Assembly (NCBI GenBank): GCA_002328625.1
Contig: DCVC01000177.1
Location: forward strand, 9,816 to 73,815
Origin: Bacteroidales bacterium UBA2198
Lineage (GTDB): Bacteria > Bacteroidota > Bacteroidia > Bacteroidales > VadinHA17
Direction of reading: 5' to 3'
DNA length: 64,000 bases
Below are positions 27,001 to 30,000 of the stretch, one piece after another. Numbering within the stretch: position 1 is the stretch's first letter; each line of letters starts with the position of its first letter. A program made the position numbers.

Positions 27001-30000
27001 TATAAAATGGATAAATCTTTGATTTATATGCACTTTATTATTATGACGTAAAACAATCTATAGGTAATGGGTTTATCGCCGGCTTTATTTTATCTTTATT
27101 GAAATTAACAAGATGAAAAAAAATAAACTTTTACTTGCCACGTGCCTGTTCGGTTTGATTGGATATGCCCAGGCGCAGCAAAATCCCGTTAATTGGGTAC
27201 ATATTTCAAGCAAAACCGGTGGTATCGAAACTCCTAACGGTGGTGGAGAGCAAACCTCATCTGCCGTGGCCGATTTCGATAATGATGGTATAAATGATTT
27301 TTGCATTACGGAGCGTACGCAGGCACCGTGCATGGTATGGTACCGTCGTAACGATAAAGGCTGGGACAAATATGTCGTGGAGGCTGATCCTATGTCACCC
27401 GAGGCCGGGACTGTAGCTTGCGATGTTGATGGCGATGGCGATTTGGATATTATAGCCGGTGGTGACGGAGGGAAAACGAAAGAAGTATATTGGTGGGAAA
27501 ATCCTTATCCGAACTTCGAACACAATATTCCATGGGAAAAATATTTGATCTATAAAGGGGGAGGTAAATACCACGACCAGATAACCGGCGACTTTGATGG
27601 CGACAGCAAAATTGATTTGGTCTTCTGGTCTCAGTCAGAACACGAACTGATTTTTGCCCGAATACCTGAAACCCCGAAAGACCCTGCAACCTGGAAATGT
27701 TTACCAGTCTATAAATATTATGACGACGGCCAGATGCAGCAACGCGGCACATATCCCTATTTTAAAAGTGTAAATGAACATGAAGGTCTTGTTAAAATTG
27801 ATATTGATGGCGATGGTATTCAGGATATTGTGGGAGGAGGGTATTGGTTCAAGTATATCAGGAACGACAAATTTTCAAATAATATGGTTGATGCTTCATA
27901 CACATTCAGCCGTTCTGTTGCCGGACAGTTTATAAAAGGAGTGCGGCCTCAGATAGTTCTTGTAGTTGGCGATGGTTGGGCCCCGTTATTCCTTTATGAA
28001 TATAAAGATAAAACATGGATACCAAAAACCATCATTGAAAAAGTCAGCAACGGGCATTCCAATTCAATTGGTGATTTTGACAGGGACGGGAACCTGGACC
28101 TCTGGAATGCAGAGATGACATTAGAGGGAAATACCAATGCCATAAATCGTATCTTACTTGGTGATGGAAAAGGTAATTTTCCAGAGGAGATCGTGGTTTC
28201 GAAGGGAATTGATGTACATGAATCTGAAATGGCTGACCTGGATGGCGATGGTGACCTGGATATTCTTGGTAAACCTTACAATGGTGATGCTCCCAGGCTC
28301 GACATCTGGCTCCAGAACGGGACAGGCGAAATAGTTACAGCTAAAAAAGGAGCTTTTAATAAACCTTTCGGCCTCGAAATATACAGCATGCGTTTTGAGC
28401 TGCAGAAAGACGTTCCTAAAACAATTGCCCTTATGAAACAAATGGGTTTTAAGGACCTGGAGGTATCTGGCTATTATGGATTAACACCTAAAGCGTTTAA
28501 AGCCGAAATAAGCAAAAATGGTCTTACCTGTTCGAGCATGATATTTGATTACAGCCGTTTTCAGACCGATATTGACGGGATCATTAAAGAAGCTAAACTT
28601 TTCGGTGCCAGGTATGTAGGCACAGGCTGGATTCCTCACAAAACCGACTCATTCAATATGGACGATGCAAAAAAAACATGCAAAGATTTCAATGATTTTG
28701 GAGCAAAACTGAAAAAAGCCGGATTAAAATTTTTCTATCATCCGCACGGTTATGAATTTGCGTATTATGATTCCGGCAGTTGTTACCAGGACTACATTAT
28801 GTCCAACACCAATGCTGATTTGGTCTATTTCGAACTTGATGCATTCTGGATAAAGTATTCAGGCGTTGATCCATTGTGGTATATGAAAAAATATCCCGGT
28901 AGGTTTGAACTTTTGCACCTTAAAGATTTGCGAAAGGATGTTCCCGGTAACCTCAGTGGAGGAGCTGTTGACGAAACAAGTGTTCCAGTCGGCAATGGAG
29001 CAGTTGAATTTCCTGCCTTACTTCGCGAAGCAATAAAACAGGGTATCAAGTTTTTTTATATTGAAGATGAAGCAAAAAATGCCATTGATCAGATACCGCT
29101 GAGTAAAAAGTATCTTGAAAGTCTCAAATAGTTTTATTGGTGAAAATGCAGTGAACAGTAGCTAACTAAATTACATTCAATTGATCTTCAACATATTGCC
29201 CTGTCAATAATTTGATCAGATTATCGGCAGCCCGACGCTGAAGAGCCTGTATTGAAGCGTCTGAGTACCATGCATAATGCCCCGTAACAATTGTACGCGG
29301 ATGATTAAATAAAGGTTCTTGTTTTTCGGTAGGTGGTTCATCCTCAAATACATCTATCCCGGCACTATGTATTACATTATTGTCCAACGCTTCAACCAAT
29401 GCATCCTGGCTCATTACCGGCCCTCTGGCAGTATTGATCAATACCGGCCGATTTTTCATTTGGATAAATGCTGCTTCATCAATAATGTGGTTTGTCTCCT
29501 CCGTAAGATTGCAATGAAGACTAATGACATGACATTTTTCGAGCAGGGTTTTCAGATCAGTCTTTATTGCACCGACTTCACTAAACTTATTATCCGGAAT
29601 GTAAGGATCATATGCTAAAACTTCTTTAAACAGATAACGTACTTTTGATGCAAAACATCCTCCAATTCTTCCTAATCCGATTATACCTGCTGTTTTATCG
29701 TGTAATTCAAAAATATCATCCATTGGCGGTTTAGAAAATAAATTACGGATTTGCCGGGAGCCCAAAGATAATGACCGTACACAGGCATAGAGCAAAGCAA
29801 GTGCATGGTCTGAAACTGCATGATTTGCATATCCCTGAACATTTGCAACTTTTATATTACGCAGGGTTGCTTCCTGAATATCAATATTATCATAACCCAC
29901 TCCATATCGGACAAGAGCTTTCAGGTTTGGTGTGAGGTTAAAAAAATCAGCGTCAATCACTGTACCACGAACAAGTATCCCCTTAGCATCGCTCACAAAA

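Follow-up and report, generated by a model that had tools for sequence, protein, structure and literature searches.

The breakdown of glycans by oxidation, elimination and hydration was first described as recently as 2023-2024, and the set of enzymes involved is still being charted. AL1 from an Alistipes species and BT1 (BT2156) from Bacteroides thetaiotaomicron (PDB entries 8TCD, 8TCR, 8TCS and 8TCT, the last being BT1 with 3-keto-1,5-anhydroglucitol) had been called 'sugar phosphate isomerases' and are lyases that act after oxidation of C3 by a Gfo enzyme exported by the twin-arginine (Tat) pathway. AL1 carries a secretion signal, and both enzymes also hydrate the glycal slowly. Their metal ligands are His178/182, Asp211/214 and His237/240; His180/184 and Trp214/217 lie at the substrate, and a Glu is catalytic (AL1/BT1 preprint, bioRxiv). 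The O-glycoside beta-eliminase AtOGE of Agrobacterium tumefaciens (8BVK), whose operon partners are the 2-hydroxy-3-keto-glucal hydratase AtHYD (8RO4) and a Gfo reductase, binds its metal through His132, Asp163, His189 and Glu233 and uses His134 as base; the first metal ligand is a His in AtOGE and AL1 where C-glycoside enzymes have a Glu (AtOGE paper). Aldos-2-ulose dehydratase/isomerase (AUDH) of Phanerochaete chrysosporium, a fungal keto-sugar dehydratase, begins with a seven-bladed FG-GAP/VCBS propeller (residues 15-434; 4A7K, 4A7Y and 4A7Z, the last with ascopyrone M and Zn; Pfam PF22301). The center of this propeller holds Zn2+, and AUDH dehydrates 1,5-anhydro-D-fructose or glucosone. 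AUDH substrates and products are 1,5-anhydro-uloses, structurally close to the lyase product. Seven-bladed FG-GAP propellers with DxDxDG loops also make up the Psathyrella velutina lectin and related proteins (2BWR, 4TQM, 5MB4). Here we describe a gene that joins an AUDH-like propeller to a candidate lyase barrel. It occupies positions 27113-29131 (+) of a 64,000-nucleotide stretch, referred to as the window, from Bacteroidales bacterium UBA2198 (Bacteroidota; VadinHA17; assembly GCA_002328625.1, contig DCVC01000177.1, positions 9,816 to 73,815).

We propose, with a probability of about 0.5, that the product is a periplasmic Sec-exported enzyme whose two conserved metal-type sites would serve a non-hydrolytic 'oxidise, eliminate, hydrate' cleavage of glycosides, a proposal built on comparison of sequences, structures and gene contexts. 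Translation of the window gives an open reading frame (ORF) of 672 codons without interruption, with exactly the boundaries of the original prediction, and the protein begins with a Sec signal peptide, continues as an FG-GAP propeller of seven blades and ends in a xylose-isomerase-like TIM barrel of 260 aa. The N-terminus, MKKNKLLLATCLFGLIGYAQA followed by QQ, is a leader of the Sec/signal peptidase I (SPase I) type with a Gln after the cleavage site, and the same pattern recurs in 39 full-length and 25 propeller-only homologues, which bears out the signal peptide first noted. Reading L-A-T-C (residues 8-11) as a lipoprotein signal was considered and dropped, because the hydrophobic stretch leading up to the Cys has too few residues and AQA followed by Q fits the homologues. 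In the full-length AlphaFold2 model (predicted local distance difference test, pLDDT, 91.9; predicted template modelling score, pTM, 0.86) seven blades lead into an alpha/beta barrel of eight strands. Such a high pTM suggests that the two domains are fixed relative to each other, which would allow hand-over between the two sites.

The propeller matches the Pfam families FG-GAP_3 (PF13517, E 1.9e-25) and FG-GAP (PF01839, E 1.6e-8). Its six DxDxDG motifs, located by motif scan at the residues tabulated below, and the seven modeled blades, of which only blade 5 is without a Ca motif, agree with the at least six Ca-binding repeats that had been predicted to form a propeller. When a propeller-only model (pLDDT 88) was compared with 48,161 representative chains using VIA-align, AUDH was the best match (Z 34.0-34.3; root-mean-square deviation 3.0-3.1 over 346-347 of 387 residues) and every other entry scored a Z of 27.7 or less. 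A second structural comparison likewise placed the AUDH entries 4A7K, 4A7Y and 4A7Z in the top three positions. Searching PDB sequences with the propeller profile recovered only CRTAC1 (E 1.5e-5) plus marginal matches to YesX and integrins. The profile of 84 family sequences does align by hhalign with a bacterial PF22301 protein, L127 (probability 97.9%, E 4.7e-13, 340 columns), which itself matches AUDH at E 1e-19. Through L127, the motif W127-W-E-N-P131 corresponds to W-L-E-N-P of AUDH, so that WxENP is common to both, and His154, Glu224 and His315 correspond to AUDH His155, His215 and His337. Taking structure and profile together, the propeller is very probably homologous to AUDH-type propellers. 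It differs from AUDH in being bacterial and exported, in having six canonical Ca loops, in lacking cupin and lectin domains, and in sharing only 14-15% identity with the fungal propeller.

Conservation within the family points to a single center. Across 84 propellers with 38-85% identity, 14 residues other than Ca ligands are at least 97% conserved: Arg68, Glu97, Glu129, Asn130, His154, Asp155, Gln174, Glu224, Arg267, Asp287, His315, Glu334, His369 and Lys387. Glu129 and Asn130 are part of the motif WWENP, with which a strand C ends. The others appear, from the model, to lie at strand-A starts or in B-C loops on one face round the propeller axis. A single asymmetric polar center of this kind resembles an active site and not the repeated inter-blade sugar pockets of FG-GAP lectins, and we lean slightly towards a catalytic role for the propeller. 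In AUDH, His155 is the proposed acid/base beside the propeller Zn. The original prediction treated the propeller as a Ca-binding tether. As a homologue of the catalytic propeller of AUDH with an invariant central site of its own, and one that also exists as an autonomous protein, it is more plausibly a functional domain than merely such a tether.

The alternative that fares best, though we consider it unlikely, is that the TIM barrel is the sole catalytic part, a 3-keto-glycoside lyase, and that the propeller is a non-catalytic carbohydrate-binding or positioning module comparable to the FG-GAP fungal lectins. The lectins PVL, AAL2 and PAL are indeed among the Foldseek matches (E 1e-10 to 1e-8; E 1e-10 for the Psathyrella velutina group), and no cofactor or catalytic motif of a characterised family has been confirmed in the propeller. 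However, lectins are absent from the top 50 VIA-align rows, all with Z of at least 26.2, and the nearest structure is an enzyme standing 6 to 7 Z units above lectins and integrins. The conserved polar residues moreover differ from blade to blade and converge on one central site. The distribution of the domain bears on the same question. Propellers of this family comprise about 480 clusters at 50% identity in Bacteroidota, Planctomycetota, Verrucomicrobiota, Acidobacteriota and Chloroflexota, and are found alone, in tandem, with type IX secretion system (T9SS) tails, in a GH5-like fusion and in large multi-module proteins. The stand-alone proteins (about 400 aa) end at the fusion boundary, ...LQNGTG, just before the linker of the fused form. 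They carry Sec leaders and are soluble exported proteins and not lipoproteins, and their 65-70% identity to the fused propeller is unusually high conservation; both features argue against a mere binding module. Among 184 propeller proteins longer than 1176 aa, most have carbohydrate-binding module CBM4_9, LamG, fn3, Ig or PKD modules alongside, some a PL11 beta-sheet domain, and a few a DUF1080 domain or an AUDH-type propeller. Company of the CBM/Ig/fn3/LamG kind, like the T9SS tails, can be cited for a binding module. It is also usual for catalytic modules in large secreted proteins, and in many of these proteins the propeller is the only potentially catalytic module; we count it for a catalytic propeller. 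The propeller does occur with different catalytic partners, as a binding module might: at L125:6375-8813 (+), one of the related loci compared here, the same propeller (68% identity over residues 1-460) is joined to a GH5-like (PF00150) domain and there is no TIM barrel.

Less probable still is a bifunctional carbohydrate-active enzyme (CAZyme) in which the propeller is a glycan eliminase similar to polysaccharide lyase family 11 (PL11) and the TIM barrel handles the resulting unsaturated or keto product of a fucose-rich, methylated or sulfated glycan. The match to YesX (PL11, 2ZUY) that suggests it has an E value of 0.027 and covers one blade pair only, in the H-S...DxDGDG segment. PL11 enzymes are eight-bladed, against the seven blades of our model, and AUDH is a far better match by structure and by profile. 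In favor of a PL11-like activity, the PL11 beta-sheet domain PF18370 occurs together with the propeller in at least 10 large proteins, the VCBS-superfamily paper connects RGL11 to the VCBS core, and three invariant residues, Arg68, Arg267 and Lys387, would be appropriate for sugars that are acidic or sulfated. Next to the target gene in the window, no genes for uronate processing (GH88/GH105, KduI/KduD) were seen. Sulfatase, GH29, URO-D-like and fucose-isomerase genes do lie beside propeller genes in L047, L048 and L052 as well as in the window. The recurrence of the last three is a hint of fucose-containing substrates, and the propeller may belong to islands for fucose or methyl-sugar glycans. 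In L047 (an uncultured Bacteroides sp.) and L048, homologues of the URO-D-like, GH29 and fucose-isomerase genes at 18468-31455 of the window stand beside tandem-propeller genes, with a sulfatase in addition.

The TIM barrel of the proposed two-site enzyme matches PF01261 only weakly (E 1.1e-5; 25.7 bits against a gathering cut-off of 31.1). The roughly 260-aa C-terminal isomerase-fold domain of the original prediction is nevertheless borne out by a phmmer search of PDB sequences, in which 8TCD (E 2.6e-22), 8TCR and 8TCS, 8TCT (E 2.8e-19) and 8BVK (E 1.3e-11) were recovered, and by Foldseek matches to the lyase entries (E 5e-14, target-normalized TM 0.76-0.86). The titles of the nearest entries name 3-keto-beta-glucopyranoside-1,2-lyases (AL1 and BT1) and the O-glycoside beta-eliminase AtOGE, so that the suggested link of this fold to eliminative cleavage of 3-keto-glycosides was well placed. 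Like AL1 and BT1, the target combines this barrel with Sec export and keeps the His/Asp/His metal site, the second His of the HxH motif and the Trp of ELDxxW. AtOGE has the same fold and aligns with the whole domain (target residues 418-653 with AtOGE 9-235): its ligands His132, Asp163 and His189 map to H543, D576 and H602, and its base His134 to H545. From that alignment range Glu651 is the likely counterpart of its fourth ligand, Glu233. The target differs from AtOGE, a single-domain protein, at 19% identity (Foldseek), and from AL1 and BT1 in its 390-aa N-terminal propeller and a clade-specific His509.

Residue matches were taken from the phmmer alignments to PDB entries, and conservation was counted over 84 fused and 62 stand-alone TIM relatives (146 in all). 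The metal ligands H543, D576 and H602 are kept in 82-83 of the 84 fused forms and 61-62 of the 62 stand-alone forms, H545 in 83 and 62, W579 in 83 and 59, and E651 in 81 and 61, respectively; E653 is also nearly invariant. Over all 146 relatives, the metal ligands and the HxH motif are kept in 97% or more. Metal ligands are thus present, as the original prediction required of such an enzyme, in a His/Asp/His(+Glu) variant typical of the lyases and not in the E-D-H-E form it had named; the outcome named there as refuting it, a TIM domain lacking its ligands, does not apply. In at least 21 sampled genomes, TIM-domain relatives are also encoded no more than 15 kb from the single-copy AtHYD orthologue, which ties the TIM family to the oxidise-eliminate-hydrate pathway. 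A lyase function of the TIM domain is, judging from these alignments, probable. The closest stand-alone relatives are encoded in Cyclobacteriaceae (L066:8728-9774 (-), L076:8806-9849 (-) and the same position in L063 and L069), divergently paired with a gene for an NHL/SMP-30-like propeller that has six blades and is exported by Tat; L066 and L069 have two Tat-Gfo genes next to the pair, and a DUF1080 gene as well. This pairing represents a second, unrelated combination of a propeller with a lyase-type TIM barrel.

Alternatively, the barrel might act on a free sugar derivative as a keto-sugar isomerase, epimerase, dehydratase or hydratase similar to IolE, IolI or AtHYD, and not as a glycoside lyase. 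We regard this as improbable. IolE is the best NCBIfam match, with an E value of 1.2e-12 but falling far short of the family cut-off, and IolE and IolI structures are among the Foldseek matches; slow glycal hydration by AL1 and BT1, and the missing counterpart of AL1 His103, would fit as well. The lyases are, on the other hand, the closest characterised relatives (phmmer E 1e-22 for AL1 versus 0.011 for IolE), AtHYD gave no match, and the His-x-His form of the first metal ligand is a lyase signature.

The fusion is not a chimera. Propeller and TIM barrel are joined in more than 70 clusters at 90% identity from several phyla (about six full-length clusters at 50% identity), among them independent assemblies of Verrucomicrobiota, Acidobacteriota and other metagenomes (L042, L044, L122, L123, L126), and the domain junction is spanned, with no difference, by contigs from separate sequencing runs of a single study, from which this DNA may itself derive. 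An assembly or gene-calling artefact, conceivable for a metagenome bin in 396 contigs with 6.8% contamination, is practically ruled out by the uninterrupted ORF, by the recurrence of the architecture in other studies and phyla and by the junction-spanning contigs. The architecture had been called unusual, and indeed none of the 400 genomes sampled from the phylum and 2 of about 185,000 species genomes were found to have it, yet at least 70 metagenomic clusters do. FastTree analysis of the TIM domains requires at least five changes between fused and stand-alone forms, a count that includes 'stand-alone' rows that are fragments and from which we draw no number of fusion events. A literature search by PDB codes and for FG-GAP with fucoidan or polysaccharide utilization loci found no paper on the architecture or on the propeller family.

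Gene neighborhoods in related loci connect the propeller with the same pathway. A fused orthologue at L126:10001-12019 (672 aa, 80% identity) is the last gene of an operon that encodes a class-II aldolase, an FSA-type aldolase, a PfkB kinase, a cytoplasmic Gfo enzyme, an AtHYD orthologue (E 1.2e-138 to 8RO4) and a major facilitator superfamily (MFS) transporter, whose gene directly precedes the fused one. It thus shares its operon with an AtHYD orthologue and a Gfo enzyme, like AtOGE. In a syntenic operon, L124:10010-11236 encodes a propeller-only protein (408 aa, 78% identity) at the same place. The two operons differ only in the TIM domain of the last exported gene, which indicates natural gain or loss of the lyase module. 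In L036 (E 2.1e-137) and L079 (E 1.6e-48), too, AtHYD-family genes stand at about 4-5 kb from the propeller genes, accompanied by short-chain dehydrogenase/reductase, Zn-dependent alcohol dehydrogenase and split-transketolase genes; in L124 and L126 the distance is likewise no more than about 5 kb. As AtHYD orthologues are single-copy and present in 86 of 401 sampled genomes, the three independent adjacencies (L036, L079 and L124/L126) exceed chance. The most frequent neighbor of propeller genes is a secreted family of about 420 aa, usually directly adjoining and sometimes with a T9SS tail (L126:12027-13289 (+), with relatives in L038, L039, L048, L049 and L050); it has no Pfam, PDB or named Atlas relative.

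The target's own genome carries an unusually large periplasmic oxidative toolkit, with 36 Gfo/Idh/MocA matches, about 20 of them with Tat leaders, and 13 matches to DUF1080, the 3-keto-disaccharide hydrolase family, one in a 1134-aa protein with two such domains. In this it resembles the Bacteroidota in which AL1 and BT1 occur, which likewise have Gfo oxidoreductases exported by Tat together with DUF1080 proteins. The target's genome further encodes four stand-alone TIM paralogues that are exported, three with a Tat-type motif and the fourth with a hydrophobic Sec-type leader, and two of them adjoin Tat-Gfo genes. The original prediction regarded the fold as normally cytoplasmic; these four paralogues and the secretion signal of AL1 contradict this, and exported members are ordinary in Bacteroidota. 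Unlike in the AtOGE system, no AtHYD orthologue was found in the genome at E 1e-60, where the only candidate is a 35%-identical partial match on contig C168. On that contig (8626-11654), at a contig end and far from the target gene, a Gfo-MFS-TIM trio has 25-35% identity to the Gfo/AtHYD/MFS core of L126.

From these comparisons we suggest the following sequence of reactions. An exported Gfo/Idh/MocA dehydrogenase, one of the many in the genome, would first oxidise C3 of a glycoside. A divalent metal on His543, Asp576 and His602, with Glu651 in addition, would polarise the 3-keto group, His545 or Glu651 would act as base and take H2, and the aglycone would leave, yielding a 2-hydroxy-3-keto-glycal (1,5-anhydro-hex-1-en-3-ulose). 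The propeller cluster of His154, Glu224, His315, His369, Glu97, Arg68, Arg267 and Lys387 would most likely be a second metal-assisted acid/base site that binds the keto or anhydro sugar, or converts it by hydrating, dehydrating or eliminating. An MFS porter would then import the product, and cytoplasmic hydratase and reductase enzymes would return the sugar to ordinary metabolism; the divergently transcribed MFS sugar porter of the window is a possible importer. In a bolder version, which we consider doubtful, the propeller founds a large AUDH-related family of secreted enzymes that eliminate or hydrate sugars with the help of a metal, and the target unites two consecutive cleavage steps: the TIM barrel would carry out the 1,2-elimination and the propeller would hydrate or convert the anhydro-enulose, and the pair would act as a complete '3-keto-glycoside hydrolase' in one polypeptide, directed at a fucose-rich or methylated glycan.

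Several observations weigh against the two-site proposal. PF22301, the Pfam family of the AUDH propeller, has no direct match in 26 members of the propeller family at E values up to 1, and weak sub-threshold matches appear only in the second propeller of tandem forms. Given this absence and the profile link to a PF22301 member, we treat the propeller as belonging to a sister family and not to PF22301 itself. The invariant Arg68, Arg267, His369 and Lys387 are without AUDH counterparts, and the GH5-like fusion and the many accompanying binding modules would suit a carbohydrate-binding propeller equally well. The TIM domain is only 25-26% identical to AL1 and BT1, and its phmmer alignment to AL1 ends before the beta-8 strand, which leaves the catalytic Glu (AL1 Glu272, BT1 Glu275) without a direct alignment. 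The substrate-binding His103/107 by which AL1 and BT1 recognize glucose is Met476 in the target (C-S-S-M476 versus L-S-S-H in AL1). Of the 84 fused forms, 67 have a Met at this position, and a His is never conserved there; this suggests another glycone and not a loss of catalysis. With regard to gene context, no gene for a glycoside 3-dehydrogenase (Gfo/Idh/MocA or flavoenzyme), a DUF1080 protein or a hydratase adjoins the target gene within the window, which unlike the AL1/BT1 systems has no operon of Gfo and DUF1080 genes, and the fused orthologues in L122, L042 and L044 sit among housekeeping genes. Gfo genes near propeller genes (L040, L046, L048, L124/L126) are about as frequent as genome density predicts; at 36 per 3.9 Mb, we do not count such neighbors as evidence.

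In the window itself, the target gene stands alone on the plus strand within a large glycan-degrading island, and 173 bp of intergenic region separate it from the MFS porter gene. The island holds a fucKIP operon, GH29-family (alpha-L-fucosidase) genes, further glycoside hydrolase genes (GH2, GH127, GH28, GH30, GH3, GH141 and GH16), esterases and a candidate corrinoid methyl-sugar demethylation module. The Gfo/Idh/MocA gene at the end of the window, which the original prediction offered as a partner, is real and continues past the window to position 74004 of the contig (384 aa in full). With 34 kb between it and the target gene, and 36 such genes in the genome, it is not a specific partner. 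Its product has a Sec-type leader ending ...NGQ, whereas exported NAD(P)-binding members usually have a twin-arginine one. Within the CAZyme array, a 251-aa ORF at 56116-56871 (-) has nothing of a TonB-dependent receptor but the CarboxypepD_reg and Plug domains; it lacks the barrel and represents a truncated or split SusC-like gene.

Table 1. Coordinates in the window of the target gene's domains, motifs and neighboring genes discussed in the text.
Feature	Position	Strand	Remarks
MFS sugar porter	25542..26939	-	Pfam Sugar_tr, E 7e-112; divergent from target gene
Signal peptide	27113..27175	+	Residues 1-21; predicted SPase I site between AQA and QQ; read from translation; low pLDDT
FG-GAP/VCBS beta-propeller, AUDH-like	27176..28336	+	Residues 22-408; seven blades
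Ca-type loop DFDNDGIND, blade 1	27272..27298	+	Residues 54-62; invariant Asp residues
Ca-type loop DVDGDGDLD, blade 2	27422..27448	+	Residues 104-112
His154-Asp155, start of blade 3	27572..27577	+	Counterpart of AUDH His155, mapping transitive via L127; at least 97% conserved in 84 propellers
Ca-type loop DFDGDSKID, blade 3	27590..27616	+	Residues 160-168
Ca-type loop DIDGDGIQD, blade 4	27800..27826	+	Residues 230-238; invariant N-E-H-E224-G motif before loop; E224 aligns with AUDH His215
Ca-type loop DFDRDGNLD, blade 6	28073..28099	+	Residues 321-329; preceded by invariant His315, counterpart of AUDH His337
Ca-type loop DLDGDGDLD, blade 7	28235..28261	+	Residues 375-383; preceded by invariant His369
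Inter-domain linker	28337..28366	+	Residues 409-418; from alignment and model
Xylose-isomerase-like TIM barrel, candidate 3-keto-glycoside 1,2-lyase (AL1/BT1/AtOGE-type)	28367..29131	+	Residues 419-672 plus stop
His543-Pro-His545	28739..28747	+	H543, metal ligand (AL1 His178, AtOGE His132); H545, AL1 His180, AtOGE catalytic His134
Glu574-Leu-Asp576...Trp579	28832..28849	+	D576, metal ligand (AL1 Asp211, AtOGE Asp163); W579, AL1 Trp214
His602-Leu-Lys604	28916..28924	+	H602, metal ligand (AL1 His237, AtOGE His189)
Glu651-Asp-Glu653, beta-8	29063..29071	+	E651, likely counterpart of AtOGE Glu233 and AL1 catalytic Glu
2-hydroxyacid dehydrogenase	29166-30131		Convergent with target gene
Gfo/Idh/MocA oxidoreductase	63035..64000	-	Cut by window end; first gene of long minus-strand CAZyme array

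Overall, the TIM domain falls, as a divergent member, within a known lyase family that was characterised recently and that the target extends to an uncommon fused, exported form. The propeller represents a very widespread secreted family with an invariant His/Glu/Arg center, whose sole characterised relative is a fungal keto-sugar dehydratase and which recurs beside keto-glucal hydratase genes and in glycan-degrading islands. Should the propeller serve only as a binding module, the fusion would be a modest architectural variant. If the propeller is catalytic, it would constitute a new class of carbohydrate-active enzymes missed by CAZyme annotation, with a bearing on the breakdown of recalcitrant fucosylated, methylated or sulfated glycans in sediments and guts.

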